A stretch of 64,000 nucleotides of DNA from Bdellovibrionota bacterium (GTDB lineage Bacteria; Bdellovibrionota_G; JALEGL01; DATDPG01). The stretch is taken from contig OY764265.1 in assembly GCA_963668355.1 (NCBI GenBank), positions 670,553-734,552 of the forward strand. The letters run 5' to 3'. Below are positions 17,856-42,660 of this stretch, piece by piece (the first letter of the stretch is position 1; each line of letters opens with the position of its first letter). The notes under the pieces were generated by a model that ran no database searches, had not been told where the DNA came from, and was given only the letters and a program-made list of their open reading frames with translations. A program made the translations under genes and the position numbers.

Positions 17856-17948
17856 GGAGAGGTGACCGAGTGGCTGAAGGTGCTCGCCTGGAAAGCGGGT
17901 GATCGGTCAAAAGCTGATCCGCGGGTTCGAATCCCGCCCTCTCCGCCA
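17856..17948 (+). tRNA. tRNA-Ser (anticodon GGA), CCA encoded
   Basis: GGAGAGG acceptor pairs with CCTCTCC. Anticodon loop CTGGAAA, long variable arm (GTGATCGGTCAAAAGCTGATCC), T-arm GCGGGTTCGAATCCCGC, terminal CCA. Confidence 0.9.
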
Positions 17949-17982: not shown

Positions 17983-18138
17983 TATGGTTGAGCGGGTGCG
18001 GTGAGACCTGCGTGCCGTAGGCAGGGTTCGAACATGCCGATCTTTCCTAGGAAAGATCTTTACAAAATATCGGTGTCGAACCGGGAGCCCTTTGGGCGGT
18101 TCGACACACACCTCACATGTCTACGTGCGAGAGCACGT

Positions 18139-18158
18139 GAATCCCGCCCTCTCCGCCA
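18139..18158 (+). repeat. 20-bp direct repeat of the tRNA-Ser 3' end (att-like)
   Basis: gaatcccgccctctccgcca is identical to 17929-17948 and is followed by its own terminator-like hairpin. Confidence 0.8.
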
Positions 18159-18165
18159 CAAAAAT

Positions 18166-18241: not shown

Positions 18242-18297
18242 GATTCGGGGGACACACGACTGAATCCGATTCAATTTTTTCTGTACCAGTCGTGCGT
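18242..18297 (-). repeat. Hairpin repeat family B, copy B1 (interrupted by IS110; the last 11 nt resume at 19487-19497)
   Basis: gattcgggggacacacgactgaatccgattcaattttttctgtaccagtcgtgcgt is the reverse complement of copy B2 up to the IS junction. Confidence 0.85.
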
Positions 18298-18515
18298 TGT
18301 ATGTGCGGGTATCCCTTCGAACGAAGCAGATGTAAAGGAGTTGGTAGGGATATTCCAGGGAGTTGTTGCAACAACTCCCTGGAAAGCCGGCTGGCGACCG
18401 ATCGTGTGTAGATCTTGAGGATCGCGGGGACCCAGGTACCAGTCTGGCCATCTCTTTACACTTGATTAGTTGAGAGGGCTTTACGCCCGCATACAATGCA
18501 AAGATTGGAGTCACT
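18298..18515 (+). ncRNA. Candidate bridge/seek RNA region in the IS110 left end
   Basis: 218 bp non-coding. Perfect 32-nt palindrome at 18353-18384. Short segments match the target flanks (18402-18409, 18421-18431, 18436-18444) and the IS termini (18339-18345, 18486-18496). Transcript ends unknown. Confidence 0.4.
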
Positions 18516-19481
18516 ATGCGAAACCAGCCAAGGAAGTACAAGCATTTTTTGGGGATTGATATGGGAAAGGATTTCTTCGAAGTCTTTGCTTTGGGTGATC
18601 CAAAGACCCATACATTTCAAAATAAACGCTCTGGATTTCAGACGTTCTTGAGAAAATACCGGCAGAAACTGCCCTCAGCCCTGATGACTGTAGAAGCTAC
18701 AGGGGGCTATGAGAAAGCCTTGCTCAAAGAGCTTGCCACTAGAGACTTGAAAGTACATCGGGCCAATCCAAGGAAAGTGAAGTTCTTTATTCGCTCCTTT
18801 GGCATTGAAGGCAAATCAGACACCACCGATGCACGTGCCTTAGCTCAATATGCTCTAGAACGACATCCTCACCTCGACCTCTTCCAAAAGCCCGATCTGA
18901 ATGTGGAAATCCTTTCCAAACTAGTGAAACGGCGCGCAGAACTGGTCGCCATTCAAACTCAGGAACGCAATCGCCTCAAAGGACCGGATCGGGAAATCCT
19001 CAAAGCAAGCGTCCAAAGAGTCTTGGCTTGTTTAAAAGAAACGATTGCCGAAATCGAAGCTCAAATCACAACTCATCTGCGCGAGAACGATCAGCTCCTA
19101 CAAAAGTATCGGGAAATTCAAACCATTCCAGGCGTCGGACCCAAAGTCGCCGCAGCTCTCTTGGCTGACCTCCCGGAACTTGGAACGATCTCCGGCAAGC
19201 AGATCGCTTCTCTCGCTGGAGTGGCTCCTCATCCCAATCAAAGTGGAAAACGAGAAGGCTACCGAAAGACAAGAGGTGGACGCGTCCAGATCAAGCCCAT
19301 CCTCTTTCTTGCTGCCCTCACAGCCTCTCGCAGCAAATCCCCGCTCGGCAACTTTTATCGAAATCTCCTCGCACAGGGCAAAAAACCCATTGTCGCTGCC
19401 GTCGCCCTCATGAGAAAAATCGTCGTTATCGCCAACGCCAAAATCAGGGACCTCTCACTTTCTCCTTGCTCTTCTACTTAG
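18516..19481 (+). CDS. IS110-family transposase/recombinase
   Basis: FLGIDMGKDFFEV..VEATGGYEKAL..KSDTTDARALA (DEDD RuvC-like N-domain) and IQTIPGVGPKVAAALLADLPELG..IASLAGVAPHPNQSGK (Transposase_20-like C-domain). GGAG sits 5 nt upstream of the ATG. Confidence 0.9.
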   Translation: MRNQPRKYKHFLGIDMGKDFFEVFALGDPKTHTFQNKRSGFQTFLRKYRQKLPSALMTVEATGGYEKALLKELATRDLKVHRANPRKVKFFIRSFGIEGKSDTTDARALAQYALERHPHLDLFQKPDLNVEILSKLVKRRAELVAIQTQERNRLKGPDREILKASVQRVLACLKETIAEIEAQITTHLRENDQLLQKYREIQTIPGVGPKVAAALLADLPELGTISGKQIASLAGVAPHPNQSGKREGYRKTRGGRVQIKPILFLAALTASRSKSPLGNFYRNLLAQGKKPIVAAVALMRKIVVIANAKIRDLSLSPCSST

Positions 19482-19497
19482 TTGGTCCCCCGATTTT

Positions 19498-19804
19498 TTT
19501 TTGGAATTTTTCGGCGCCCTGCCCCCGCCCAATTTATTCACCTCCTACTCCTGACAAACCCCTAAAAACGCTGGGTCTGGGCCCGTTTGCGCACACCCGT
19601 GCGCCCTTTTCATCAAGATTAAGAATTTTTGCCCTGTATCACCGACCCGCCCAGGTGTCCTCTTCATACCTGGCATCCATCAGATACGCCTCATCCCCTA
19701 TTTCCTCGTCGGCTTCGAACGCCTCACCCTGAACACCTTCTAGCTGTTTCATCCAACCTGGAGGCCCTGTAGCCCGCTCCTCACTCGTTGCCTGTCCCAA
19801 ATGG
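19498..19804 (+). repeat. Dispersed repeat family A, copy A1 (lacks the left ~90 bp)
   Basis: Near-identical to 26815-27121 and 29926-30232. The left boundary is ambiguous because the B-hairpin end cccccgatttt resembles the internal A motif cccccatttt. Confidence 0.85.
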
Positions 19805-19836
19805 CAATTGTTGCGGTCTGTGTGAACAGATTGCGC

Positions 19837-20361
19837 TCAAGGACGATCCAGGTAATCGCTACACCAATCATACCCTTCTGGTTGGTCTTCAGTTTTGAAA
19901 AGAATTTCGAACCATCCGCTCTCGGGACGAAAATGAGCTTCGGCTTTGAGGATGTTTGTATTCGAAAGATCTGGATCGGCTTGGCGAAGGATTTCGACTT
20001 GGGAATTCGAAAAATCGAAAGCGTACTCAATTTCGTAAAGATCATCGGACAATCCCACAGCCAGATCTTGAAAGGACAAAGAATGAACAGATTCAGATGT
20101 TAGGGTTAGTTTTGCTTCGTGTTGGTCTGTGTTGTGTGCGTCCGGAAAATGGGTTTCCACGAGAAGAACGCGGATAGTTTCCGAATGAACCGAGGAAACA
20201 CATTCTCCTCGCCAATAAAATTGTCCCGAATCTGGAAGCAGTTGGCCTTCTTCGTAAGGACAAATCGATCGTTCGCAGTTTTTCCAGTCATCATCGTCCC
20301 AATCACAACCTGAACCGATTAGAAGAAGCGTAACAAGTATTAAAGAATTTATTTTCGTCAT
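19837..20361 (-). CDS. Hypothetical lipoprotein
   Basis: MTKINSLILVTLLLIGSGCDWDDDDW lipobox. Last gene of the 21414->19837 operon. Confidence 0.5.
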   Translation of the reverse strand: MTKINSLILVTLLLIGSGCDWDDDDWKNCERSICPYEEGQLLPDSGQFYWRGECVSSVHSETIRVLLVETHFPDAHNTDQHEAKLTLTSESVHSLSFQDLAVGLSDDLYEIEYAFDFSNSQVEILRQADPDLSNTNILKAEAHFRPESGWFEILFKTEDQPEGYDWCSDYLDRP

Positions 20362-20362
20362 A

Positions 20363-20845
20363 TTAGAACTCCAGGCGGGCCGTAAGAAATGCCCCTTCTT
20401 TGGTTGGGGAGATGGAGAGATTCCATTTTCTTTTGTTTTCAGTGAGGCGCTCTTTCACGAGTCGATTGTGGTCGATGACTCCGGATACCCCTCCCGCGCA
20501 ATCCCAAATGAGGGCTGGAATGTAGAGAAGAGCTCCTCCAACTAGAAACATTCCCCCTACAATATCGAGGTCGTCGCAATCGCTTCCAGGTCCTCCTGTG
20601 CAAGTGGCATTCATCATGGCCACGCCCGCCCAAAAAGCCAAACCGCCAGGAATTCCTATCAAGCCATTGATTGTGGCTTGAATGGGTTTTCCTCCGTAGA
20701 AAAGGCCGTCCATGGAAAGAGGGTCCAGTCCTAGAATCCAGGCCGTTTGTTCAGATTTGAGTTGGAGAGATTCTTGAGCTCTTAACGTGGCCGGAACCAA
20801 AATGAGAAACATAAGAAACATGAGTGCTATCGTGTTTTTTTTCAT
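20363..20845 (-). CDS. Hypothetical secreted/membrane Gly-rich protein
   Basis: Signal peptide MKKNTIALMFLMFLILVPATLRAQE, then Gly-rich hydrophobic segments. Separated by 1-2 nt from the downstream gene. Confidence 0.45.
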   Translation of the reverse strand: MKKNTIALMFLMFLILVPATLRAQESLQLKSEQTAWILGLDPLSMDGLFYGGKPIQATINGLIGIPGGLAFWAGVAMMNATCTGGPGSDCDDLDIVGGMFLVGGALLYIPALIWDCAGGVSGVIDHNRLVKERLTENKRKWNLSISPTKEGAFLTARLEF

Positions 20846-20859
20846 ATTGATGTCACCTT

Positions 20860-21414
20860 TCAGAAAGAAAATTCGAGGCCTAATGCATCAAATGAAGGTA
20901 AAAATTTTGTTTGATTATTGGGCACGCTGGAGCTTCCTTGGTGGCTGCCGAAGAGCGTCGTGAGACCCCCTTGAAAAATGAGCGCAAAGTGTTTGGTTGG
21001 TTTCCAGCGAAACCCAGCTCCAGAAAGAAGTGTTGGACCTGACCAGGAAGGTCTGTTCTCCAAACCGATGGCTTTGAAATATCCACCTCCGGCGTAAAGA
21101 AATGGCTGAAAAGCTCCCATCGAGAGTTTTCCTCGAACAACGGCATTCGCATTCATTCCCATGATCGGAATGGGAATGGGGAGAGAAACTTCGAGTTCGA
21201 GAAAAGAGGTTGCTTCAAAACCAAAAGCGACAAGAGAGTGTACGCCTGTCGGGCTGTTGTTATCTCCTGGTTGAGGAAGAATGAAGCTTGTGAAGGGTAA
21301 CTGCAGTCTAATATGAAACCGATCGCTGCTCGTTTCTTGAGCTTGAGCATTGCTTGCAGATACGACGAACAAAGATAGAAAAAAAACTAAGCTCGCGATG
21401 GCTTTGCGTTTCAT
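20860..21414 (-). CDS. Putative outer-membrane beta-barrel protein
   Basis: Start at ATG 21414 (MKRKAIASLVFFLSLFVVSASNAQA) preceded by AAAGGAAG. Alternating beta-strand pattern and a C-terminal ..LGLEFSF aromatic end. Confidence 0.5.
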   Translation of the reverse strand: MKRKAIASLVFFLSLFVVSASNAQAQETSSDRFHIRLQLPFTSFILPQPGDNNSPTGVHSLVAFGFEATSFLELEVSLPIPIPIMGMNANAVVRGKLSMGAFQPFLYAGGGYFKAIGLENRPSWSGPTLLSGAGFRWKPTKHFALIFQGGLTTLFGSHQGSSSVPNNQTKFLPSFDALGLEFSF

Positions 21415-21449
21415 ATGTGTACTTCCTTTCAACATCACCCTTTAGCTAG

Positions 21450-21466
21450 AGCGAGAGACGTGCCAA
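21450..21466 (-). promoter_or_regulatory. Sigma-54 (-24/-12) promoter for the 21414->19837 operon
   Basis: The minus strand reads TTGGCACGTCTCTCGCT. TGGCACG is exact and GG-N10-GC spacing is correct, with the -12 element TCGC. Predicted TSS is about 25 nt upstream of ATG 21414. Confidence 0.6.
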
Positions 21467-21508
21467 TCAAATGAGCCTGATATCATTGGGGAATTTCACT
21501 GTTTGGAA

Positions 21509-21544
21509 GTGTCAAAAAGATGAAAGCTGACACTCTTTGTGTCA
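21509..21544. promoter_or_regulatory. Candidate enhancer (UAS): three GTGTCA/TGACAC half-sites
   Basis: GTGTCA (21509-14), TGACAC (21528-33) and GTGTCA (21539-44) form two overlapping inverted repeats 45-95 bp upstream of the sigma-54 promoter. Confidence 0.4.
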
Positions 21545-21601
21545 GGATGGTCGAAAGCCGATGTGTGTTTATAAAGACTTAGCGATGAAAAGAAGGGTGG
21601 C

Positions 21602-23398
21602 GTGATCTTTGCTCTTACATCTTTTCTAAATATGTTTCGAAAAGGTAAATCGGGGTTTGTTTTGCTCACGATCTATGGAGTGATTGCGATCACGCTTTCT
21701 AGTTTGTCTCTTTATTTTGCTTTTCAAACCATTGGAAAACCGTTCGCAGGGTTTTTGCCATTTCAAAATCTTTATGTAGGAGCGTTCACACAATCGAGCT
21801 GGGAAGGCGGGAAACAAAATTTAAAATATCATGATCGAGTTCAGTCCATTGACGGAAAGATCGTTCGGGATGGGAATGAATTTCATCAACATTTGGAGGG
21901 AAAGTCTGAAATTGAACTTGGAATATTATCCGGTATTGAGGAAAAACTGAGCCAGTTTTCTGTTGAGACCCTTCTTCCAAATGATGTTTTTGTTATTTTT
22001 GCACCGTTGTTCGGTACAGGGTTGGCGTTCTTGGTAATCGGATTGTTGGCTCTTATGGTTCATCCGGCACCAGCGGGGGTTGTGTCCTTTGCGACGTTTT
22101 GTCTGTGTTTAGGGGCATATTTTTTGAGTGCCTACGATTTTCACACGACCTACCATTTGGTTCCGGTCCTCTTGTTTTCTTTTGCTCTTGTTCCTGCGGT
22201 AACCATCGATTTGATCGTTAGTTTTCCGAAAAAGATGGGGCATTTTCCAAAGCTTAGAGGTGTTGCCTACGGTTTTTCGGGGTTGATGGCCATTCCCTAC
22301 ATTTGGCTATTCTCCAAAGATTCATCTCGGTGGGTTTGGTTTGAGTATGCGTTTTTCCTCTATCTTTCTATGGCCTACCTTTTTTGGCTTGTGGTGATGG
22401 CTCACCGAAGTCTTCGCGATCAAGATGATACGGTCAGGCGTCAATGTAGAATTTTACTCATACCTATGATTTTGGCCTTCGGCTTTTCCTTCATCGTCAC
22501 TTGGATGGTCTTTGTTTTTGACTGGGCCATTCCCTTAAATTGGGTGGCTCCGTTTTCCCTCGTGTTCCCATTAGCCATTGGCTACGCCATGCTTCGGCAG
22601 AATTTGTTCTTAGTGGATCATTTAGAACAACAAATTCATGAGCGAACAAATGTGTTGAAAAAAACCCAGGCAGAATTGTTTGAAGCTTCCAAGTTGGCTT
22701 CTGTAGGCACATTGGCTGCGGGAATGGCTCACGAAATTGGCAACGCGATGCATCTCATCTCGTCCAATCTCCCCATTTTAAGAAAATATACCAACTCCTT
22801 GATCAACAGCGGACGGGAGTCTGCACAAGAGCTTGAGTTTGTAAAAGAGGATATGCCTGAATTGTTGTCAAACATGGAGAGAGGAGCTCAGCGGGCCCAA
22901 GATATTACAATGGATCTTAAAAATTTTTCAAAACCGGAGAAGGCGAGTTTTCAGCGTGTGTCACTTCAACATGTGTTGGAGGGGACGCTACGTCTTTTGA
23001 AAATTGAATTCGGTTCAAACATAAGTGTTGTAACGAAGTTTTCTTCTATACCTGAAGTTATGGGGTCGGAGAGGCAACTTCATCAAATATTTTTAAATCT
23101 TCTCTTGAACGCCAAACAGGCGATTGAAGGAAAGGGAGAAATCCGGGTATCGATATATGGCTCCGACGCGGAGGTTGTTGTTGAGATTCAAGACGATGGC
23201 AGAGGGATCTCGCCAGAACATCAAGCTCGAATCCTGGAGCCTTTTTTCACGACGAAAGAACGGGGTACAGGTCTAGGTTTGAGCGTTACGAAGGGCCTTG
23301 TGGAAGCTTATGGTGGAAAGTTGGCCATCGAAAGCGAAATTGGAAAAGGGACAAACGTGAAAGTATTTTTTCCGACTGATATAAAGAACGTAGCATGA
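21602..23398 (+). CDS. Membrane sensor histidine kinase
   Basis: 598 aa with multiple TM segments. H-box AAGMAHEIGNAMHLI, N-box FLNLLLNAKQA, G-boxes DDGRGI and GTGLGLSV. GTG start; an alternative ATG is at 21632. Confidence 0.85.
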   Translation: MIFALTSFLNMFRKGKSGFVLLTIYGVIAITLSSLSLYFAFQTIGKPFAGFLPFQNLYVGAFTQSSWEGGKQNLKYHDRVQSIDGKIVRDGNEFHQHLEGKSEIELGILSGIEEKLSQFSVETLLPNDVFVIFAPLFGTGLAFLVIGLLALMVHPAPAGVVSFATFCLCLGAYFLSAYDFHTTYHLVPVLLFSFALVPAVTIDLIVSFPKKMGHFPKLRGVAYGFSGLMAIPYIWLFSKDSSRWVWFEYAFFLYLSMAYLFWLVVMAHRSLRDQDDTVRRQCRILLIPMILAFGFSFIVTWMVFVFDWAIPLNWVAPFSLVFPLAIGYAMLRQNLFLVDHLEQQIHERTNVLKKTQAELFEASKLASVGTLAAGMAHEIGNAMHLISSNLPILRKYTNSLINSGRESAQELEFVKEDMPELLSNMERGAQRAQDITMDLKNFSKPEKASFQRVSLQHVLEGTLRLLKIEFGSNISVVTKFSSIPEVMGSERQLHQIFLNLLLNAKQAIEGKGEIRVSIYGSDAEVVVEIQDDGRGISPEHQARILEPFFTTKERGTGLGLSVTKGLVEAYGGKLAIESEIGKGTNVKVFFPTDIKNVA

Positions 23399-24759
23399 GT
23401 TTGCCCACGCTTCTTTATGTAGATGATGATCGAGAAAATCTTCCCACGTTAAGACGAACCCTGCGTGGAAAGTTTAATCTGGAAACCTTTGAACATCCGG
23501 ATGAGGCATTGGAGTCTGTTCAGACCTCTTTTTTCCCCGTCTTGATTGCAGATCAACGCATGCCAAAGATGACCGGAGTGGAATTTTTGAAGAAAGCCAA
23601 AAAGGTTTCGCCAAATTCCGTTGGAATTGTTCTTACAGCCTACTCGGATATCGACGCTCTCATTGAGGGAATTAATGCGGGTGTGATTTATCGTTATGTG
23701 ACCAAACCATGGAATGAGAATATTTTGTTTCAGGCCATCGAGCAGTCCTTGGAATATGTTCGTTTGGTTGAAGAAAATCGGAAGCTCATGCATGCGCTCA
23801 AGTGCGAGAATGAAGTCTTGCATTCACAAATTAACGAGCAATTTGACGTCGATGCACTTGAAGAAGGGCAAGCCGGATTAAAAGGCGTTGTTGATCTTAT
23901 TGCCAAAGTGGCGAAGACGAATTCGACCGTGTTGATTCGTGGAGAAAGCGGCGTTGGAAAAGAACTCGTGGCAAGGGCTATCCATCGATCGAGTCCTCGA
24001 AAAAACAAACCCTTTGTTCGTGTGAATTGTGGAGCTTTGTCTGAAACGTTGCTGGAAAGTGAATTGTTCGGGCATGAGAAAGGGGCCTTTACGGGAGCTT
24101 CTCAGAAACGGATTGGGCGTTTTGAAATGGCCGATGGTGGAACGGTCTTTTTGGATGAAATTGGAGACATTTCTCCCAAGATGCAAGTCAGTCTGTTGCG
24201 CGTCCTCCAAGAACGTGAGTTTGAGAGGGTGGGTGGCAGTCAGACGATTTCTTGCGATGTTCGTGTTTTAGCAGCAACCCATCAAAATCTGGAAGAGCTT
24301 TCGCGTGAAAAAAAATTTCGAGAGGATTTGTACTATCGTCTGAATGTTTTTCCTCTTCAGATTCCCCCCTTGCGGGATCGACTTGAAGATCTTCCGTCCT
24401 TGGTGACTCGGCTCATGCGAAAAGCGAGTCGAAATACAGGAATCACTCCCCTTCCTCTTTCAAACGAAGCCACGGAAAAGTTGGGGCGCTATGACTGGCC
24501 CGGAAATGTTCGAGAATTGGAAAATGTTTTGGAAAGGGCGCTGATTTTAGCGACCGATCGAGAGATTGCTTCGGAAGATTTGGTGATGGGGCCAGGTTTT
24601 GATGAACAAGATCTGGGTCGCCCTCGTGAGGAAATTACCAAAGAGCTTTTGGAGAAAACTCTGAGGGAAGCAAGTGGCAATAAAATGGAAGCGGCCAAGC
24701 GTTTGGGGTTGAAACGCCCAACGCTGTACTATCATTTAAAAAGATTTGATCTGAGTTAA
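23395..24759 (+). CDS. Sigma-54-dependent response regulator (NtrC family: REC + AAA+ + Fis HTH)
   Basis: ATGA overlap with the kinase gene. REC (LLYVDDD..ADQRMPKMTG), Walker A GESGVGKE, GAFTGA loop (EKGAFTGA), C-terminal HTH NKMEAAKRLGLKRPTLYYHLKRF. Confidence 0.9.
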   Translation: MSLPTLLYVDDDRENLPTLRRTLRGKFNLETFEHPDEALESVQTSFFPVLIADQRMPKMTGVEFLKKAKKVSPNSVGIVLTAYSDIDALIEGINAGVIYRYVTKPWNENILFQAIEQSLEYVRLVEENRKLMHALKCENEVLHSQINEQFDVDALEEGQAGLKGVVDLIAKVAKTNSTVLIRGESGVGKELVARAIHRSSPRKNKPFVRVNCGALSETLLESELFGHEKGAFTGASQKRIGRFEMADGGTVFLDEIGDISPKMQVSLLRVLQEREFERVGGSQTISCDVRVLAATHQNLEELSREKKFREDLYYRLNVFPLQIPPLRDRLEDLPSLVTRLMRKASRNTGITPLPLSNEATEKLGRYDWPGNVRELENVLERALILATDREIASEDLVMGPGFDEQDLGRPREEITKELLEKTLREASGNKMEAAKRLGLKRPTLYYHLKRFDLS

Positions 24760-24787
24760 CCGTTTTTTTGAAACGTTTCAAAAAGCC

Positions 24788-24825
24788 GAAAGGTCAATCA
24801 ACGCGCGACCATTGATTGACCTTTC
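24788..24825 (+). terminator. Strong hairpin downstream of the regulator gene
   Basis: gaaaggtcaatcaa / ttgattgacctttc gives a 13-14 bp stem with a roughly 10-nt loop. It is preceded by the smaller palindrome ttgaaacgtttcaa. No clear T-run. Confidence 0.45.
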
Positions 24826-24943
24826 CCTATTGGTGTTCAACCGTCTTCGGCTTAATAGTTCGGGTTCGGCTCTTCAGACACGTCATCTCCATCACAATCG
24901 TCGGCGGACCATTCCAATGGAAAACCTTTGATTGTGTGTTCGT

Positions 24944-25014
24944 CCTGAAAATCGGGGGACGCACGACTGGTACAGAAAAAATTGAATCGGATTCAGTCGT
25001 GTGTCCCCCGAATC
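24944..25014 (+). repeat. Hairpin repeat family B, copy B2 (full length, reference copy)
   Basis: Left arm cgggggacgcacgactg (24953-69) and right arm cagtcgtgtgtcccccg (24994-25010) are imperfect inverted repeats around an A-rich loop. Confidence 0.85.
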
Positions 25015-25126
25015 CCCACAAAATCGTCGCTTCATTTTTTCTCGTTGGGCTTTCTTATCCACGAAACCCGTGACACCTTGTTTGAACTCTTAACTATGGG
25101 TAGCGCCCCGCCCTCTCGACGAGTGC

Positions 25127-25165
25127 AAAATTAGAAATCGGATTCTGCCGTGTGTCCAGCAATCT
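25127..25165 (+). repeat. Family B, copy B3 (loop + right arm only, diverged)
   Basis: aaaattagaaatcggattctgccgtgtgtccagcaatc aligns with the B2 loop and right arm. Confidence 0.6.
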
Positions 25166-25303
25166 CAGATCTCACGTAACGTATTCTTGGAATCCCAAAA
25201 AAATTAACCATCTGAAATCATTAAGCTAATAAAGGGAGGTTTTACAGTTCGCCGGAACTCGAGGAAGAAGCTTGACAAAATTGACGCGCCACATTACATC
25301 AAC

Positions 25304-25346
25304 AAAAATCGAGGCAGACTGAATTCAGTCGTGTGGCCCCAGATTT
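25304..25346 (+). repeat. Family B, copy B4 (right arm only)
   Basis: gaattcagtcgtgtggccccagattt aligns with the B2 right arm. It lies just upstream of the ORF starting at 25372. Confidence 0.6.
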
Positions 25347-25371
25347 GCTGTTTCAAAACCAGGAGAAAAGT

Positions 25372-25713
25372 ATGAAAAAGTCAATTGTCGTATGCCTGAC
25401 GCTTCTTTCTTTCCTTTGGAGTTTTTCCACATTCGCTGATCCCTGTAGCTGCCACATAGAAAATAAGCAATTCGTTGAAGATGGCCCTACGCTAATCGAC
25501 CACTTCGAGCAATCACGCGGAGACAAATGCCCCCGAACAGCGGTTCACGAATCGGAAAGCGGCGAAACGCATTACCAACTGTTTTTCCAAGACGCATCGC
25601 GCTCGGAGAAGTGCCTTTATCACTTGTTCAGATACGGCCCGGACAATAGCGCCGAAACCATTGTTCGCTGTGATCGCGCGTGCGCGCTGGCCAACGTTGA
25701 AGAGCCAAACTGA
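25372..25713 (+). CDS. Small secreted Cys-containing protein, unknown function
   Basis: ATG 25372 lies 8 nt after AGGAG. MKKSIVVCLTLLSFLWSFSTFA is a signal peptide. 113 aa. Flanked by B4 and B5. Confidence 0.5.
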   Translation: MKKSIVVCLTLLSFLWSFSTFADPCSCHIENKQFVEDGPTLIDHFEQSRGDKCPRTAVHESESGETHYQLFFQDASRSEKCLYHLFRYGPDNSAETIVRCDRACALANVEEPN

Positions 25714-25714
25714 G

Positions 25715-25783
25715 CCTGAAAATCAGGGGCCACGACCACTACAGCTTCAGAAAACAGATTCAGTCGTGCGTTCCCCGGTTTCC
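25715..25783 (+). repeat. Family B, copy B5 (full length, diverged)
   Basis: cctgaaaatcaggggccacgaccactacag...gattcagtcgtgcgttccccgg. It sits between two convergent ORF ends. Confidence 0.7.
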
Positions 25784-25786
25784 ATT

Positions 25787-26726
25787 TTATGAAGTATGGA
25801 CGTGGAAATAGGCCTCAAACGTCTGAAGGCGGGAATCTTCCACCGGACCACCTACCGTAAAATGATAGAGGCTCTGCCAAGTCTTGTCCTTCAAGCCTAG
25901 CAAATCATGCACCCCGTCATCAAAAAAACAACCAATCCCCGTACCCCGCACGCCCTGCGCTTCCGCCATCAAGTAAAGGACTTGCCCAATCATGCCGGTC
26001 TCCCAGAAAAGCTGACGATAAAGATGAGGAGACGCTTCGATAACATCGTGAAAGCGAGCCAGCATACCTAGAGAGAACGCGCTATCGCCGGCAATGCTTT
26101 GTTGGCAGCTAAACGTGGCCGCCTCATGGCGAAAATCTCCCTCTATTAAAGCATATAGGGGAAGGCCTTCCTCCTCAGGACGCCAGAGGAATTCTGAACG
26201 AGTCTTGGATTGCAGTTCTTCCAATTCGAAAGGCCGGCGGAGAAAGGCATAGAGGCCCGAAGGCAGCCCCTCCACCCGATGCACAAACAAGAGAAGATGC
26301 ACGCGTGGCTCCCCTACATCCAAACTAAATGGAGGTCTGGCTGGACGCGGCAAAGTTGCTTCTAACATCTGAAAGAACGTGTCTCGAGTTATGGAGGTTT
26401 TCCCATCGAAGGCCACCGCGCTTCGACGCTGCCGCACCGTCTTGGCGACAGATCGGTCTGGCCAATCTCTGGGCGGCATGTCCGTTAACTCGACGGAACT
26501 GCCCCTTTCTTCTTTTCCGTCACACACCGAGGCTTCTGAAACCTTGCCAATCTCTGGCCACGCATGGTGGGAGGAACTTAAGACATTCGGAACGCCTTTG
26601 ATGTCACCCATTCGCCATGCAAACAGTTGACGTAACACCTCTTGGCGGGACGAAATTGGCGCCGGCGAAACAAACACCAAACATTCGGCTTCTTCGCTCT
26701 CCTGTGCGGGCCAGGTGGTTACATTG
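25787..26726 (-). pseudogene. 5'-truncated SagB/ThcOx-type nitroreductase paralog (C-terminal domain only)
   Basis: Collinear with residues from about 225 to the end of the 535-aa protein at 34719..36326 (RRSAVAFDGKT.., SCQQSIAGDSAFSLGMLARF, GVRGTGIGCFFDD, QSLYHFTVGGP). The homologous frame (VTTWPAQESEEAECLVFVSPAP) runs up to the A2 boundary at 26727. Confidence 0.7.
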
Positions 26727-27121
26727 ACGTATAGGGAATTCCTTTCCCATCGGTAGACACGAACTTTCCCCTGGCTCGTATTCTTGAACCTTAGGCATCG
26801 AGCCTTTCCCCCATTTTTTGGAATTTTTCGGCGCCCTGCCCCCGCCCAACTTCTTCACCTCCTACTCCTGACAAACCCCTAAAAACGCTGGGTCTGGGCC
26901 CGTTTGCGCACACCCGTGCGCCCTTTTCATCAAGATTAAGAATTTTTGCCCTGTATCACCGACCCGCCCAGGTGTCCTCTTCATACCTGGCATCCATCAG
27001 ATACGCCTCATCCCCTATTTCCTCGTCGGCTTCGAACGCCTCACCCTGAACACCTTCTATCTGCTTCATCCAACCTGGAGGCCCTGTAGCCCGCTCCTCC
27101 CTCGTTGCCTGTCCCAAATGG
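26727..27121 (+). repeat. Dispersed repeat family A, copy A2 (full, 395 bp)
   Basis: acgtatagggaattcc...cctgtcccaaatgg. About 6 substitutions versus A3 by eye. It carries a small acidic frame and an SD-preceded basic frame on the minus strand. Confidence 0.85.
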
Positions 27122-27349
27122 CGCAGATGGAAAGGTGTGTGTTTTAAGGCATTTGCGAAAGCTAGCGGGTGGTACGCGATTTGCTTTGATGGCCCGTGTC
27201 TCATTAAGGGAAGGGAAGAATTAGAATGCGAAACTTAAGCATATATATTGGCCATTTATGTTGATCTCTCTTGTTTTCGTGGCTACGGCCCACGCGGCGG
27301 GAACCCGTAGTTGCGAAGGCATACAAGAGGATGGAACCAGATTCTACGT

Positions 27350-27749
27350 CATTTGGGACAGCCAACGAGGGAGGAGCGGGCCACGGGGCCACCGGATTGG
27401 GTAAAGCAGGCTAGTGTAGGTCAAGGGGAATCGGAGTACGCCGATACAGAGGTAAGTGACGAGAGTTATCTAATCGATACAGAGTATCGGGGAAGCCGTC
27501 GAAATAAGCATATAGGCGCAATCGAAGGAGACTTCATTTGATGGATAAGGTGCGCGGGTGTGCGAAAAACGCGGGCTTTGTGACCATTCGTGGGGTTTTC
27601 AAAGGGATTCGAGGTATCAGGATGGGCGGGCGGCGGTGGCAGGGCGCCAAAATCGAAAAACCAACGGTCGGAAGATTCAAAAAACGACTCAAGAGGTTGT
27701 TCAAAAGGCAGGTTCAAACTTCTACGACTCAATACTTTTCCCTATACGT
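27350..27749 (-). repeat. Family A, inverted and diverged copy A-prime (about 400 bp)
   Basis: Starts catttgggacagccaacgagggaggagcggg and ends ttccctatacgt, so both A termini are present in reverse orientation. Internal blocks are homologous (gtgtgcg hairpin, ggcagggcgcc). Confidence 0.7.
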
Positions 27750-27777
27750 TGACATAGTCCATCAATTTACAAAAAAC

Positions 27778-28113
27778 TTAAATTCTTGTTCCACGAACTG
27801 TGAAACGAGTACCAATAGAACAATATTTTAGTTCATCGCTTAGATCTTCCAATTCATCCTCTCCTACTCGAACGATGGAAATATCACGAAGGTTAACTTC
27901 GTCTCCCAATAGCTCAGCGTAGTGGTCTTTGATGAGGATGGAATTAGGATTGCTCGGGTTTGTTTCAGATCCTTCGATGAGAGTTCCTTCGAATTCGATT
28001 ACTTCTCTTGGCCGAGCCGTAAGAATCGCATCGAAATAGGTTTCATTTAGTTCGAGAGTCACAAACAATTCAGTTCCGTCTTGTCTTCGATCATTCAGCG
28101 TTACGTTTGGCAT
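27778..28113 (-). CDS. Hypothetical protein (111 aa)
   Basis: ORF with GAAAGG upstream of the ATG. Acidic, no signal peptide, no recognised family. Confidence 0.4.
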   Translation of the reverse strand: MPNVTLNDRRQDGTELFVTLELNETYFDAILTARPREVIEFEGTLIEGSETNPSNPNSILIKDHYAELLGDEVNLRDISIVRVGEDELEDLSDELKYCSIGTRFTVRGTRI

Positions 28114-28273
28114 GGGGCAACCTTTCTATAGGTGTGAGTGAGTCTCTCATATCATCGATATAGGCACAGTGCGCAATAAATTCACAGAGTTTAAGAGTGG
28201 CCCCATTTCTTTCCTAAAAGCTGAGAACGGTCGGATTCAAATCTGGTATGGACCTGCCCCCCCCGATCCGAAA

Positions 28274-29671
28274 TTATTCCTTGGCGGTCTGCCTAGCTAA
28301 ATCAGCTAGATGTTTCTTCGAGATGTTGCAGACATCACAGTTCATATCCAAGTTAAGCCCCGAGTTCATCTCCGAACGAAGCTCTGAGATAGTTGCCTCG
28401 AAATGTTTCTTTGCTGCCTGCGCATTTTTAAGAACTTCTTGAATCAGTCCGATACTGAAATGAAGAATCTTTCTAACCTGCTTTTCTTTGGTGTTTTCAA
28501 GTTTCGATTCGAGTTTTTCCAACATATCTTTGATCGACAAAGGATGGTTCGCATATAAACGAACCATTTCTTGAACCGCAAACGGCGCTACATAGCCCGA
28601 TTCATACATCCCCATTTCATGATCTGCCGAAAGGGCCATCTTTATATGATAAAAGCCCTGATAGGCTGCCGACTCGTTTAGCAAGATCTTTTCATACTTT
28701 GTGAGAGCTTCCTTCGCACGATTCTGCTTTTGTAACCACCGAGCCAATGCAAGATCGAGCATGATACGGTTAACTTTTTCAACATTAGCCTTGTCAACCG
28801 CCTGCAGCATAAGATCAGTTTTTTCTTTGGAAACTTTATCAAGAGTTTGTTCAATTAGCTCTATCGCGACGTTATCGTATGCCCACGAAGAATCACTCTC
28901 TCGACAATAAACTGTGCGTGCCTTAGTCGAGAACGTTGAAAGATATGTAAGAAGATCCGGAATAACGTTATCTATCCGTTTTAAATGAAACGATGCATCG
29001 GCCTTGAAGATTGCAGCTAACGCTTTCGAATGAGATACAAACCCAGCATAACATCCATAAAGAGACCAGACTTCTGTCGTCATATCGGGTTTCTCGATAA
29101 CATGCTCCGCCATCTGCAGAAGAGTTTCTTGGTCGTCGAAATAATCTGCAAAAACCATCACGGCGACAGCCTGCGCAGCCGTCTCATCTGTCCATGGTTC
29201 TTGCTGTTTGAGCGTTTGATCTTTTAACGTCCTTAGATTTTGTTCGACGATCGATTTCTCTTGCATTGAAAATGGCATATAACGACGGAGAATCTCAGCC
29301 GCCCATAGCCGATTTAAATTTTTCTCATCCACTAATCGCTTGGCAAGGGGAAGTACGGGCTCCCTTCCCAACTTCACGGTTTTTCGATTCGAGATTGCTC
29401 GAAGAGCATATTCTCTAACATGGCCACGCGCATCTTCGAAAAGAGGTAAAATTAACGGCAATAGCTTAGGGTTACTTGGGAGCATCCTTTGTAGCTCAGT
29501 CCCAGCTTCAGATGATGCTACCTGATCGTTACTCTGAAGATTCTCGATTAACTGACGTCCTCGAATAAGATTTGAATCCGATACATTGGTTTGAGCTGTC
29601 CGCCAACGGCTTGAACTAGCCATGATATGGAAAGAACGACTGAAACAATCAAAATTGACGTCTTCATCCAC
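28274..29671 (-). CDS. Hypothetical alpha-helical repeat (HEAT-like) protein
   Basis: 465-aa ORF. LLPLILPLFEDARGHVREYALRAI.. resembles HEAT repeats and the remainder is helical. The start is uncertain (GTG 29671 or ATG 29623). Confidence 0.45.
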   Translation of the reverse strand: MDEDVNFDCFSRSFHIMASSSRWRTAQTNVSDSNLIRGRQLIENLQSNDQVASSEAGTELQRMLPSNPKLLPLILPLFEDARGHVREYALRAISNRKTVKLGREPVLPLAKRLVDEKNLNRLWAAEILRRYMPFSMQEKSIVEQNLRTLKDQTLKQQEPWTDETAAQAVAVMVFADYFDDQETLLQMAEHVIEKPDMTTEVWSLYGCYAGFVSHSKALAAIFKADASFHLKRIDNVIPDLLTYLSTFSTKARTVYCRESDSSWAYDNVAIELIEQTLDKVSKEKTDLMLQAVDKANVEKVNRIMLDLALARWLQKQNRAKEALTKYEKILLNESAAYQGFYHIKMALSADHEMGMYESGYVAPFAVQEMVRLYANHPLSIKDMLEKLESKLENTKEKQVRKILHFSIGLIQEVLKNAQAAKKHFEATISELRSEMNSGLNLDMNCDVCNISKKHLADLARQTAKE

Positions 29672-29730
29672 CGAACTATATGTCAGATACTCAATGTCAG
29701 ATACTCATAACTGTGCCACTCCGAGCGACT

Positions 29731-29791
29731 AAAATCCGGGGACGCCCGACTGTATCTAATTTCTTAAACTGGATAGCGTCGACTGTCCCTC
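29731..29791 (+). repeat. Family B, copy B6 (most diverged)
   Basis: aaaatccggggacgcccgactgtatc...ggatagcgtcgactgtccctc aligns loosely with both B2 arms. Confidence 0.5.
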
Positions 29792-29837
29792 ATTGCTAAA
29801 GGCAGGTTCGAACCTGCCTACGGAACAGAGGTTCTCA

Positions 29838-30232
29838 ACGTATAGGGAATTCCTTTCCCATCGGTAGACACGAACTTTCCCCTGGCTCGTATTCTTGAAC
29901 CTTAGGCATCGAGCCTTTCCCCCATTTGTTGGAATTTTTCGGCGCCCTGCCCCCGCCTAATTTCTTCACCTCCTACTCCTGACAAACCCCTAAAAACGCT
30001 GGGGCTGGGCCCGTTTGCGCACACCCGTGCGCCCTTTTCATCAAGATTAAGAATTTTTGCCCTGTATCACCGACCCGCCCAGGTGTCCTCTTCATACCTG
30101 GCATCCATCAGATACGCCTCATCCCCTATTTCCTCGTCGGCTTCGAACGCCTCACCCTGAACACCTTCTAGCTGTTTCATCCAACCTGGAGGCCCTGTAG
30201 CCCGCTCCTCCCTCGTTGCCTGTCCCAAATGG
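29838..30232 (+). repeat. Dispersed repeat family A, copy A3 (full, 395 bp)
   Basis: Same termini as A2. Preceded by a 37-nt segment that is an inverted copy of 18002-18038. Confidence 0.85.
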
Positions 30233-33465: not shown

Positions 33466-33506
33466 GAAAATCGGGGGACGCACGACTGGTACAGAAAAAA
33501 TTGAAT
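33466..33506 (+). repeat. Family B, copy B8 (left arm + loop only)
   Basis: gaaaatcgggggacgcacgactggtacagaaaaaattgaat is identical to the B2 left arm and loop; homology then stops. Confidence 0.75.
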
Positions 33507-34718: not shown

Positions 34719-36326
34719 TCAAAGGTTGAGATGTGCATAGGGAGGATACGTTCGCAACCTTGAGTCTTCCAGGGGTCCGCCTACCGTAAAATGATAGAGA
34801 CTTTGAAACGTTTGGTCTTTCAGACCAATCAGCTCATGGACAGCATCATCAAAAAAGCAGCCAATGCCCGTACCCCTCACTCCGAACGCTTCCGCCATTA
34901 AATAGAGGGTTTGTCCAATCATGCCCGTTTCCCAGAACAGCGAACGATAGCGTGAAGGAGAGGAGGAAATTTCCTCTTGAAATCGAGCCAACATACCCAG
35001 GGAAAAGGCGCTGTCACCCGCAATCGATTGTTGGCAACTCAAAAGCGTGGCTTCGCGACGCATATCCCCTTCTTTAAGCTGAAAAAGAGGAAGATGGTCA
35101 TGCACGCTTTTCCAAGAAAATTCGGTCCGGAGAGATTTCTTTAAAGATATGAGATCGTTGGCATTTCGAACCCACAAATACATTCCCGAAGGGATGTTGT
35201 CGACTCGGTGAACGAAAAGAAGAAGGTGTACGGCGGGGTTGCCAAATTGAACACGAAGAGGAGTACGATTTTTTCCGGGGAGTGTGGATTTGAGAATGGT
35301 GAAAAACGTCTCGCGAGACATTCTCGTTTTCCCGTCAAACGCGACCGCACTTCGTCTTTTCCGAATCGTTTGAGCTAGAGATGCTTCTGGCCAAGTGTCT
35401 TTTTCCCCCGAATCGATAGAGAAAGAAGCACTCTTGGTCTGGCCACCTTGGTTCTTTGTGGCTTCAGAAACAAGCTGAATATTGGGCCAAGGATGATGAT
35501 CGGGACTCAATGAGTTGGGAGAACCTTCCAATTCACCGCAACGAGTTGAATCCAAAGGCAACGCGAGAAGCTCTTCCTCCGTTGGAGAGGTGGGTGAAAT
35601 GAAAAGAAGGAGATCGGCTTCTTCTTTTTCCGACTCGACCCACTCGACTCGATCAAATCCGAATAAACATTCGAGGGATGAACTTTTTTGTGTGGGAACA
35701 TCGTGAATCTTCCACCCCAGCAAAGCTGCAGCATAGTCGATGGCTGCGATGGCGTGGCCCACATCATGTTGACAATAGCGAAAGGCTCGCTCGCCATACT
35801 TCCATGCCTCTCGCCAATAAATGCTGGTAAGAAGAACAAAAAAGCCTTTTGGCTGCCAATCCGGTGACGGGCTAACAATTTGAGAACGCTGCTCAAGCTG
35901 GTGATGAAAGACGTCGTAATGATAGACCCCCGCAGAAAACTCAGGAATATCAGGAAGCAAGAGGTGCACTTCTGTGGGGTGAAGATTCCCACTGGAGGGA
36001 TTCATACGGAGGGCCCATCGACTTCCTCCAGTCTCTTTCCAAGCTGAAAGCCCCATGGAAAACTCTAGAAATTTACTTAGGGAGTCTCGGGTTAAAGCCG
36101 AAGCGGGGTTGTCGTCATTCAAGACCTTCCTGATCGACGCGTCTGGATCCTCCGCATTTAAATTCAAGGAGATCGTTTTACATCCTTGAAAAAAACGAAA
36201 GGGGTTTGGTTGGGTGGACCAGTCTAGGTAGCCCAAGGACGGAGACATGCGATGAAAGTGGTGTTTGGTGCACTCGTGAAATTGAAACACGACATCAAAG
36301 GGGGATCGCCTAGGCACAGATTGCAT
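34719..36326 (-). CDS. Tandem SagB/ThcOx-type (nitroreductase-fold) dehydrogenase
   Basis: 535 aa. The N-terminal half starts FHECTKHHF..LDWSTQPNPF (SagB-type signature). The C-terminal half repeats the fold (RKRRSAVAFDG.., GIGCFFDD, LYHFTVGGP). Confidence 0.75.
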   Translation of the reverse strand: MQSVPRRSPFDVVFQFHECTKHHFHRMSPSLGYLDWSTQPNPFRFFQGCKTISLNLNAEDPDASIRKVLNDDNPASALTRDSLSKFLEFSMGLSAWKETGGSRWALRMNPSSGNLHPTEVHLLLPDIPEFSAGVYHYDVFHHQLEQRSQIVSPSPDWQPKGFFVLLTSIYWREAWKYGERAFRYCQHDVGHAIAAIDYAAALLGWKIHDVPTQKSSSLECLFGFDRVEWVESEKEEADLLLFISPTSPTEEELLALPLDSTRCGELEGSPNSLSPDHHPWPNIQLVSEATKNQGGQTKSASFSIDSGEKDTWPEASLAQTIRKRRSAVAFDGKTRMSRETFFTILKSTLPGKNRTPLRVQFGNPAVHLLLFVHRVDNIPSGMYLWVRNANDLISLKKSLRTEFSWKSVHDHLPLFQLKEGDMRREATLLSCQQSIAGDSAFSLGMLARFQEEISSSPSRYRSLFWETGMIGQTLYLMAEAFGVRGTGIGCFFDDAVHELIGLKDQTFQSLYHFTVGGPLEDSRLRTYPPYAHLNL

Positions 36327-40929: not shown

Positions 40930-42660
40930 GTGCGTCTATTTCAAAAAAATTCTAAGGAGATCTTCATCAAGGTAAGATCTTCGTCCACAACAATGAAGTG
41001 CTTCACAAGATGCTTAGTCGCTTTCAAACGATCCAAGGTCCGTTGGGCCACTTGGGTTTTTTTTGCTCCTGTTCTGCTTTTTTCATCCAACCTTGATGGC
41101 ACTTGGATTTTAGACGACCACTATCAAATCGAAGAAAATCCCTATGTACGCTCCGTGAAGCATATTCCTCGAATCTGGACCACACGAGTCTGGGAATCGA
41201 CCTCCTTGGAGTCAACGGGTTCGGACATCTATCGTCCGGTCTTTCTCACTTCCTATATCTTGGATTCTTACCTTTTTGCTCTTGCTCCTTGGGCCTGCCA
41301 TTTATTGAACAATTTGCTGCATGCCTTAAATGCGCTGCTTCTCTTCCTCATCATGAGCCATTTCGTTCCCTTAAGATGGGCTGGATGGGCCGCTATCATA
41401 TTCGCCTTACATCCATTGGTGGTAGAGGGGGTGACTTGGATCAGTGGTCGCATGGACCTTTTGGTGACGTTTTTTGCCCTTCTCAATCTCCTCTTTCTTC
41501 GGAGAGCCCTTTGCCCTCCTTCCTCCAGTTCATGGAAGTATGTGCTGCTCTTCTTCATCACCATCCCCCTTGGACTGTTCTCAAAAGAGGTTTTTCTCCC
41601 TTTGCCCTTCCTCTTCATCGGGTCCTTATGGTTAACAACGAAGACCAAGCCCAAACGCTTATTCCCCTCTTTAATTTTTGGAACTTTTTTCCTCACGCTC
41701 ATCGGCTTAATTTGGAGAAATCAAATTGTTCAAAAAGATATTTTTCAGCTCTTGTCTTTAACGAACCTACGAAATGCAAATGCGCTTCTGGGTCGTTTTT
41801 TCACCCTTTTTCTCAACCCAAGCGACTCTGACTTCTTCTTCCAATACCCAAATCGGCCATTTTCTTGGAGTTTTGATTTTTCGATTTTTCTAGGATTGCT
41901 CATCGTTGTAGGCGTTCTCGTTTATAAAAGCCGAAAGAATGTTTTTGCTCTATGGGGATGGGGCCTGCTATTGGGACCTTTTTTGCCCCTTTCTTTGATC
42001 GTGGACCTTCTGGGATTAATCAGTGAGCGTTATTTTTATCTCCCGTTCGCGGGGTTTTGCATCCTTTTGGCCCAGGGAAGTTTCTGGGCCCAGGAAAACA
42101 TTCGACCCCGATTGAGCGCCTTTCCCGCCAGAGGATTCACATCGATTGGGCTGGTTTGGATTTTGGCTCTATCCACCATCACCGTGTTGCGAAATCGAGA
42201 ATGGCGTAGTGAAGTTCAGCTATACGAAAGCTCGATGGAACGAGACCATGCCAATTACCTTCCTCACTTTTTCATGGCTTGGCATCATCGACGGACTGGG
42301 AGATCAGATCTGGAAGTTCAAAGCTACCAAGAAACCTTGAAACGAAAGCCCGGCAATCTTCACTCTCTGAACAACCTCGCCGTTCATTACATCGACCATT
42401 CACAGTTTACCAAAGCCTTGCCTCTGCTGGAGAGGGCATTGAAGAAGAATCCCCATCGCGCCAAAACCTTCTATAATTTTGGGTATTTCTATGAGAGACA
42501 AGGGCAGTATCACCACGCCAAATCTCAATACGAAGCCGCACTCCATCTCCGCCCCGGATATCTAGCCGCGCAAAAGGCCTTACGTCGCATTCGCATCATT
42601 CTTAAAAAGGCTGATGATCAAAAAAAGTCTGAGACTTCACAAGCGGTTGACTTAGAATAG
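40930..42660 (+). CDS. Polytopic membrane protein with C-terminal TPR repeats (GT-C / PMT-like fold suspected)
   Basis: 576 aa. The N-terminal ~400 aa are multi-TM with YRPVFLTSY. The C-terminal part has TPR-like repeats (NNLAVHYIDHSQFTKALPLLERALKKNP, YNFGYFYERQGQYHHAKSQYEAAL). Confidence 0.5.
   Translation: MRLFQKNSKEIFIKVRSSSTTMKCFTRCLVAFKRSKVRWATWVFFAPVLLFSSNLDGTWILDDHYQIEENPYVRSVKHIPRIWTTRVWESTSLESTGSDIYRPVFLTSYILDSYLFALAPWACHLLNNLLHALNALLLFLIMSHFVPLRWAGWAAIIFALHPLVVEGVTWISGRMDLLVTFFALLNLLFLRRALCPPSSSSWKYVLLFFITIPLGLFSKEVFLPLPFLFIGSLWLTTKTKPKRLFPSLIFGTFFLTLIGLIWRNQIVQKDIFQLLSLTNLRNANALLGRFFTLFLNPSDSDFFFQYPNRPFSWSFDFSIFLGLLIVVGVLVYKSRKNVFALWGWGLLLGPFLPLSLIVDLLGLISERYFYLPFAGFCILLAQGSFWAQENIRPRLSAFPARGFTSIGLVWILALSTITVLRNREWRSEVQLYESSMERDHANYLPHFFMAWHHRRTGRSDLEVQSYQETLKRKPGNLHSLNNLAVHYIDHSQFTKALPLLERALKKNPHRAKTFYNFGYFYERQGQYHHAKSQYEAALHLRPGYLAAQKALRRIRIILKKADDQKKSETSQAVDLE

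Follow-up and report, generated by a model that had tools for sequence, protein, structure and literature searches.

Repeat family A of a Bdellovibrionota genome: very probable right-end miniatures of an IS91-family insertion sequence

The IS91 family comprises insertion sequences (IS) that encode transposases of the HUH/Y2 type and move by rolling-circle transposition (PMC13181058, PMC6218425). The oriIS end lies downstream of the transposase gene and the terIS end upstream of it, and in cis the terminal 82 bp of the right end are sufficient; termination is imprecise, neither terminal inverted repeats nor target-site duplications are formed, and the targets are GTTC, GTCC, GTAC, or GTCG (PMC13181058). 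The oriIS region of ISCR1 spans 232 bp and contains outward promoters (PMC6218425), and in another IS91 element oriIS lies 167 bp after the coding sequence (PMC5737581). Trapping experiments with IS801 yielded right-end miniatures of 229, 360, and 679 nt, which started at defined internal tetranucleotides and accounted for 26% of the insertions (PMC3189936); these fragments arose from full-length copies and not from pre-existing fragments (PMC3189936, Bardaji et al. 2011). Here, we analyzed a stretch of 64,000 nt of a Bdellovibrionota bacterium (contig OY764265.1 of assembly GCA_963668355.1, positions 670,553 to 734,552; hereafter the window), which carries a repeat designated family A. We conclude that this family very probably consists of miniatures derived from the right (oriIS) end of an IS91-family rolling-circle insertion sequence; they are new and belong to a rarely sampled lineage but are ordinary in kind.

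The copies of family A were located by repeat finding, MAFFT alignment, and nhmmer, the last of which returned four copies in the window (E-values of 1e-104 to 1e-129) and no fifth one. Their positions (Table 1) agree to within 1 nt with those given in the initial annotation of this DNA, which had listed the family as unclassified; the repeat is real, and the element can now be assigned to the IS91 family through a bridging contig and the terminus described below. A2 and A3 are complete and differ at six of 394 positions, exactly the number counted by eye in the initial annotation, and A1, which lacks the oriIS terminus, differs from either at five of 306. The mutual identity of these three copies amounts to ~98.4%, and the two to three private changes per copy form a star-like pattern. 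The fourth copy, A-prime, separated from A2 by a 229-bp spacer, was confirmed by alignment as inverted and more diverged with both termini in common. It shares ~68% identity with A over the coding part and 85–87% over the first 60 nt, and the final 12 nt (TTCCCTATACGT) are the same in A2, A3, and A-prime; a hairpin region and a GC-rich patch are also common to A and A-prime, and the rest is near saturation. Two more copies of the A type are present elsewhere in the same genome, at the loci encoding the proteins P0004 and P0005. A 25-nt match at position 41072 was dismissed as a chance similarity falling within the gene of a large membrane protein of 576 aa. Most likely, A1–A3 came from one recent burst of one master, and A-prime and the two other-locus copies descend from diverged masters that were truncated at nearly the same point.

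The identity of the peptide encoded at the left end of the repeat was revealed by a metagenome contig. The profile built from the four A peptides and searched against 5.8 billion protein clusters matched only six proteins, all of them short: three were the window's own open reading frames (ORFs), P0004 and P0005 came from elsewhere on the same 2,922,492-bp contig, and P0003 was encoded by a 526-bp contig of the European Nucleotide Archive (ENA; ERZ23877644), hereafter L001. In L001 the tail frame continues in the upstream direction, uninterrupted by a stop codon over at least 64 codons (...RKRWAQLIRQVFEVDPLECQRCGGKMRIISFVSVRQVEVIEGILN/HLEEPTREERATGPPEW, also ...RTRRKRWAQLIRQVFEVDPLECQRCGGKMRIISFVSVRQVEVIEGILN/HLEEPTREERATGPPEWVKQ...). 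This upstream stretch, reading ...RWAQLIRQVFEVDPLECQRCGGKMRIISF...ILNHL, is the C-terminus of IS91/ISCR-family transposases: it matches the NCBIfam model ISCR_clade_Ia (model positions 436-497 of 509, E 9.6e-8) and, in tblastn, 2787 plasmid records, whose annotated top matches are mostly 'IS91 family transposase' or ISPps1. The BLASTP alignment of L001 with an ISPps1-like transposase (E 2e-15) crosses the boundary of A. The latter protein ends with ...ILDHIGADSEPPRISPARGPPLWDD followed by an acidic tail, and a Trichlorobacter homologue ends with ...YADSQVIEYEEAYYEPEYL, much like ...EYADTEVSDESYLIDTEY of A. When a profile of three annotated IS91 tails was run against the 1318 six-frame pieces of the window, A-prime ranked first (E 0.043) and A2 fourth, the weak score being expected for about 35 residues. 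The homology of L001 with A and A-prime does not end at the stop codon but extends across the hairpin and the GC patch. The lineage of A has in common with IS91, IS1294, ISPps1, and ISCR the C-terminal motif CxxCGGxMR(I/V)I(A/S)F...IL.HLG...GPP.W and the acidic tail, and differs from them in that A keeps the last 54 codons only, without an HUH/Y2 domain and without terIS; its tail is at most 40% identical to those of the characterized family members. On the strength of this homology, the 'small frame' of the repeat is identified as the 3'-terminal 54 codons of a transposase gene of the IS91/ISCR family.

As another source of the repeat, the initial annotation had considered site-specific integration that duplicates the 3' end of a known gene. 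An origin from a gene end is essentially what we found; the probable cause is rolling-circle transposition and not duplication by an integrase. Successive integrations at attachment (att) sites, each duplicating the 3' end of the target gene, would draw on the position of the region beside a tRNA-Ser gene with a 26-nt duplicate of its 3' end nearby, a duplicate which indicates that integrative elements were once present here. However, none of the copies has an integrase next to it, both orientations are represented and the flanks are unrelated, and the homology of the repeat is with a transposase tail and an IS terminus, not with a host gene, so that we regard this origin as exceedingly improbable.

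The conservation of the peptide raised the question of whether the repeat carries a gene of its own. Ratios of nonsynonymous to synonymous substitution rates (dN/dS), calculated by the Nei-Gojobori method for the first 46 codons of the HLGQ frame, were 0.28 for A2 vs. A-prime (dS 1.10), 0.19 for A2 vs. L001 (dS 1.6), and 0.25 for A-prime vs. L001 (dS 0.34); two control frames gave 1.2-3.9. The differences between A2 and A-prime were distributed over codon positions 1, 2, and 3 as 13, 9, and 22. The initial annotation had named a ratio near 1 as the outcome that would speak against coding; the computed 0.19-0.28 means that the coding signature is real. An independent repeat or mobile element with its own selected and expressed small gene (coding for the 54-aa acidic peptide, alone or together with a second, GTG-initiated frame) would account for these ratios and for the conservation of the peptide family in five variants; in A2, A3, and A-prime the frame also extends upstream to a start codon of some kind, and the absence of a full-length transposase with this tail among 15 billion proteins leaves the outside source of selection not in hand. 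Against such a gene stands the continuation of the frame into a transposase body in L001, which is nested among the truncated copies, so that the divergence pre-dates truncation.

The decay of the copies points the same way. Near position 27488 of A-prime, a 1-nt insertion shifts the frame, leaves the ancestral TAG out of frame, and replaces the conserved end ...EY-GE-(G/A)VEIGT-stop (...E(I/R)GT) with an unrelated extension. The private changes of A1 and A2 in the coding part comprise two non-synonymous and one synonymous. As the initial annotation had stated, there is no conserved start codon or ribosome-binding site in the repeat: neither a start codon nor a Shine-Dalgarno sequence is common to the copies, the sequences 5' of CATTTGGG are unrelated, and the internal Met18 of A1–A3 is Val elsewhere (GTA in A-prime). 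The tail peptides have no Pfam match. The frameshift, the 2:1 ratio of private changes, and the lack of a shared start or ribosome-binding site all say that the relics are no longer under selection, and we consider a small gene proper to the repeat very unlikely. The low dN/dS in the tail is due to divergence accumulated in full-length genes: purifying selection acted while the transposase genes were still full-length, and the copies that remain are relics without a coding function. What had been noted earlier as a peptide under purifying selection holds for the first ~46 codons, as part of a transposase tail and not as a gene of the repeat. In the public protein collection, the relics of this genome figure as five hypothetical small proteins of 37-82 aa (P0001, P0002, P0004, P0005, and P0006), each beginning at an arbitrary upstream or internal start codon. 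A bolder, speculative reading would have the acidic tail peptide itself translated, e.g., fused to upstream frames, and selected.

The non-coding part of the repeat ends as an IS91-family element does. The right end of an ISPps1-like element was mapped by comparing two plasmid copies in different contexts, which gave a homology of 1881 bp ending 198 bp past the stop codon with ...AAAACGCCTATCCGT; in A2, A3, and A-prime the terminus (...TTCCCTATACGT) lies 229 bp past the stop. Eight of the nine terminal bases agree, at a fixed position, between the end of A (...CCCTATACGT) and that of the ISPps1-like element (...GCCTATCCGT), the shared form being CCTAT(A/C)CGT, and the probability of such an agreement by chance was estimated at ~1e-4. 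Family A ends in the family-type terminus ...CCTATACGT. Apart from this motif at the very end, aligning the non-coding part globally with its ISPps1-like counterpart was not informative. The anatomy as a whole corresponds to that of IS91, IS1294, ISPps1, and ISCR, with oriIS ~170-230 bp past the stop, neither terminal inverted repeats nor target-site duplications, and, in one of two readings of the end, a GT-starting flank. The oriIS-side flanks read GTCA, GTTG, and GTTG if the end is placed at ...TATAC, and CAAT, TGAG, and TGAC if it is placed at ...ACGT; the former set resembles the GTNN targets listed in PMC13181058, with three sites only to judge from. Target-site duplications, a feature raised in the initial annotation, are absent: no direct repeat was found in the flanks of A2, A3, or A-prime. 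Neither were inverted repeats found between the ends of A, and a classical miniature inverted-repeat transposable element was ruled out on both counts.

Between the relic and the terminus lie the GCGCAC/GTGCGC hairpin and the GC-rich patch. The hairpin, reported in the initial annotation, is present in A1, A2, and A3, and a degenerate form of it occurs in A-prime (27550-27564) and L001. A T-run follows it on the + strand, so that it looks like a terminator in the direction antisense to the transposase. The GC patch, which with L001 included reads GGCGG(G/T)GG(C/A)AGGGCGCC(G/A)AAA, is the sole strongly conserved block within the non-coding stretch and probably serves as a cis-acting site of the oriIS region. 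The AGGAG-preceded GTG frame proposed earlier found no coding support. It is open in A, but its start is not conserved, and conservation is confined to a ~20-nt DNA patch (GGCGGNGGNAGGGCGCCRAAA) that is open in two frames (GGGRAPK and GR.(Q/K)GA(K/E)) in A, A-prime, and L001; this patch is DNA-level conservation and speaks against the second frame as part of a small gene. Truncated ISCR copies that keep oriIS occur in resistance islands beside unrelated genes. Unlike them, family A is accompanied by no resistance genes and revealed no sigma-70-like outward promoter in a simple scan, so that the idea of an ISCR1-like promoter POUT is unsupported. Folding of both ends of A as DNA gave nothing better than shuffled sequences (z-scores not significant), and in Rfam, tRNA, and tmRNA searches A matched no known RNA family, the tRNA-Ser being the only call.

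The left end of the repeat is of another nature. No conserved palindrome is found there; homology stops abruptly inside the transposase tail, without terIS, and A is for this reason classed as a one-ended or miniature derivative. With only 54 codons and no transposase body, A is not an autonomous IS91-family element, and tblastn found no IS91-type transposase body in the window. A1, A2, A3, A-prime, and the P0004 copy all start at HLGQ, preceded by unrelated sequence, and the P0005 copy starts five codons further in; the sequence around the boundary is ...ATCCTCAAC/CATTT. Just outside the common block, A2 and A-prime both carry CT(G/A)CG(C/T) (Leu-Arg, with synonymous differences), and at the boundary A-prime reads ILRHLG where L001 has ILNHL. 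L001 shares 88% nt identity over the 46 tail codons (76% aa) with A-prime, which is 56-63% identical in aa to the other truncated copies, and a neighbor-joining tree pairs L001, uncut at the boundary, with A-prime as its sister and places it within the group of truncated copies. Because a lost transposase body cannot be regained, this topology means that A and A-prime were truncated independently; the P0004/P0005 lineage was probably also truncated independently at nearly the same position. The clustered boundaries and the independent cuts argue for a site-preferred process over random deletion.

The main competitor is that the copies are the remains of full-length IS91-family elements after deletion or recombination, without any partial rolling-circle transposition. 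Most IS801 fragments in Pseudomonas syringae genomes were indeed judged to be products of reorganization and not of one-ended transposition (PMC3189936), A1 was clearly truncated by such an event at its other end, and the window offers no available transposase gene. The junctions tell otherwise: three 98.4%-identical copies and a diverged one start within at most 9 nt of the same position, their flanks are unrelated with nothing common at the junctions, and the two further genome copies start within ~5 codons of the boundary. Random deletion would not have stopped identically in at least two to three independent lineages, and we judge this origin to be unlikely.

Partial transposition offers the more plausible route, with an internal stop signal as its possible cause. 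The sequences show the homology, the terminus, the anatomy, and the decay; the route and the stop signal are deduced from them. Transposition would begin at oriIS and proceed across the 3' part of the transposase gene in the direction of terIS; copying would end early at an internal terIS-like site ~395 nt in, and the resulting miniature would insert beside a GT-starting target tetranucleotide with no target duplication. The tail would have evolved in working transposase genes, the miniature copies being now non-coding. The IS801 miniatures of P. syringae pv. phaseolicola resemble A in being continuous, with an intact right end and the 3' part of the transposase gene behind a defined internal start; they are likewise recurrent, without inverted repeats or target duplication, and of similar size (360 vs. 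394 nt). IS801 nevertheless represents a different, very distant IS lineage in a different host; formation of the miniatures was observed for IS801 and is deduced for A, the left-end tetranucleotide rule of IS801 (target-like, GAAC-type) is not evident in A, and an active full-length partner of A was not found.

Several observations weigh against the interpretation of A as right-end miniatures of an IS91-family element. Compared directly with classical IS91 tails, the 54-aa peptide is only weakly similar (E 0.04-1.2), and the assignment rests on the L001 bridge and the terminus. The second codon of L001 is an in-frame stop, so that this contig may likewise hold a fragment, albeit a longer one. 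The left boundary can be placed to within ~9 nt; in A2 it may lie up to ~6-9 nt further out, at ~27129. The left-end tetranucleotide CATT (or G(C/T)CA further out) is not obviously like a GT-type target. Subterminal palindromes near the end of A (GGGAA-N5-TTCCC and GGCTCG-N20-CGAGCC) are absent from A-prime, and none of them folds better than shuffled sequence. Finally, no full-length member of the sub-lineage turned up in the window or in the public data searched. A full HMMER search with P0003 against 1.84 billion representatives returned only tails of 61-80 aa, and a protein search with the C-terminus of L001 only short tails and no full-length transposase; A2 had no blastn match among plasmids. 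Degenerate-pattern scans of genome, metagenome, and viral contigs yielded only the known Planctomycetota contig described next and two Streptomyces loci, which we presume to be chance matches. The Planctomycetota contig (L006, JBDRKQ010000122.1, positions 60-363, from a metagenome-assembled genome, MAG) and another ENA contig (L007, positions 120-429) carry distant IS91-type C-terminal fragments with the tail ...HLGEPTE.ERATGPP.W, in-frame stops upstream, and breaks or contig ends that interrupt them. The 'TREERATGPPxWVKQ' sub-lineage proper is otherwise seen only in L001, and all representatives of this tail sub-lineage found so far are fragments.

Table 1. Positions of family A, its parts, and neighboring features in the window
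Feature	Position	Strand	Remarks
A1	19498-19803	-	without the last ~87 bp (oriIS terminus)
A2	26727-27120	-	complete miniature, 394 nt: transposase-tail relic, 229-bp non-coding oriIS region, and terminus
A3	29838-30231	-	complete miniature element, 6 substitutions vs. A2
A-prime	27350-27749	+	diverged copy, head-to-head with A2
Predicted transposase-tail relic, A1	19639-19803	-	same relic as in A2
Predicted transposase-tail relic, A2	26956-27120	-	last 54 codons and stop, HLGQATREERATGPPGW...
Predicted transposase-tail relic, A3	30067-30231	-	same relic as in A2
Predicted transposase-tail relic, A-prime	27350-27541	+	frameshifted
oriIS-type terminus ...TTCCCTATACGT, A2	26727-26738	-	
oriIS-type terminus, A3	29838-29849		
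oriIS-type terminus, A-prime	27738-27749		
6-bp GC hairpin GCGCACACCCGTGCGC	26906-26921 (A2); 30017-30032 (A3); 19589-19604 (A1)		~35 nt past the relic stop
GC-rich patch GGCGG(G/T)GG(C/A)AGGGCGCC, then A-run	26830-26846; 29941-29957; 19513-19529; 27632-27648		
IS110-family insertion sequence	18298-19484	+	transposase 18516-19481; Pfam DEDD_Tnp_IS110, Transposase_20
Hairpin B1, split	18242-18297 and 19485-19497		68 nt; IS110-family element inside the stem
Other family-B hairpins	24947-25014; 33466-33506		
Partial family-B copies	near 25136, 25317, 25752, 29730, 32515		about 26-41 nt
tRNA-Ser(GGA)	17856-17948		
Duplicate of the tRNA-Ser 3' end	18139-18164		26 nt, 92% identical, 190 bp on
~40-nt element, first	18003-18040	+	just 3' of tRNA-Ser
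~40-nt element, second	29795-29832	-	directly adjoins the oriIS end of A3
Nitroreductase-family gene, first	25787-26680	-	46 bp downstream of the oriIS end of A2, same orientation
Nitroreductase-family gene, second	about 34737-35036		73% nt identity with the first over 300 nt
ORF entering the left end of A-prime	27258-27349, 27750-27831		signal-peptide-like beginning
Convergent ORF	27778-28113		

The truncated end of A1 results from its replacement by a hairpin, B1, bearing an IS110-family insertion: the right arm of B1 (CCCCCGATTTT) adjoins A1 at a T-run, in place of its last ~87 bp, much as the initial annotation had described (~90 bp). The extent of B1 was deduced by comparison with the intact hairpin at 24947-25014. 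The IS110-family element is separate from family A. IS110-family elements prefer hairpins of the repetitive extragenic palindromic (REP) type, and the precise split of the B1 stem fits this preference. B1 belongs to a REP-like hairpin family, B, of ~68 nt (CGGGGGACRCACGACTG...CAGTCGTGYGTCCCCCG), several partial copies of which stand directly after gene ends.

The segment of ~17.9-33.5 kb is a mosaic of mobile-DNA remnants. The tRNA-Ser duplicate looks like the attL/attR scar of an integrative element that has been lost nearly wholly. Two elements of ~40 nt form an inverted pair (GTTGAG...CCGTAGGCAGG(G)TTCGAAC(A/C)TGCC) with a core resembling a tRNA T-arm and with no Rfam or tRNA call; one of them directly adjoins the oriIS end of A3, which implies that A3 inserted at its leading GTTG. 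Pfam searches of the neighboring genes identified a nitroreductase-family protein, the IS110 transposase, and a protein with weak, sub-threshold HEAT-repeat matches. The two nitroreductase-family genes are paralogous; the idea of a ribosomally synthesized and post-translationally modified peptide precursor beside a SagB-like nitroreductase was dropped because L001 showed the transposase continuation. At the left end of A-prime, an ORF with a signal-peptide-like beginning (MLISLVFVATAHAAG...) enters the copy and, when A-prime is removed in silico, stays open to the TAG at 27831 (58 aa). A-prime may have interrupted a small secreted-protein gene, although the open continuation, which overlaps a convergent ORF, could be due to chance.

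The analysis of family A illustrates that a repeat can owe a clean third-codon-position signature to its parental gene; here the signature led gene callers to deposit at least five spurious small proteins. It also documents an IS91-family lineage known otherwise as fragments, namely one ENA contig together with distant pieces from a Planctomycetota MAG and from ENA. It is possible, albeit doubtful, that the ...IL.HLG codons of this sub-lineage, ~395 nt from oriIS, contain a conserved internal stop signal through which the same miniature has repeatedly been shed, and that the miniatures persist or move in trans after the autonomous element is lost. If this were true, the stop-signal miniatures would be a bacterial counterpart of non-autonomous Helitrons, possibly moving or regulating adjacent genes. 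That IS91-type elements shed miniatures of their right end at a preferred internal site, a notion that rested until now mainly on the trapping of IS801, receives independent evidence here from sequence data. Should the complete genome bear out the common boundary, it could become possible to define the internal stop signal, which would bear on the choice of termination by IS91/ISCR elements and hence on the adjacent DNA that they capture.

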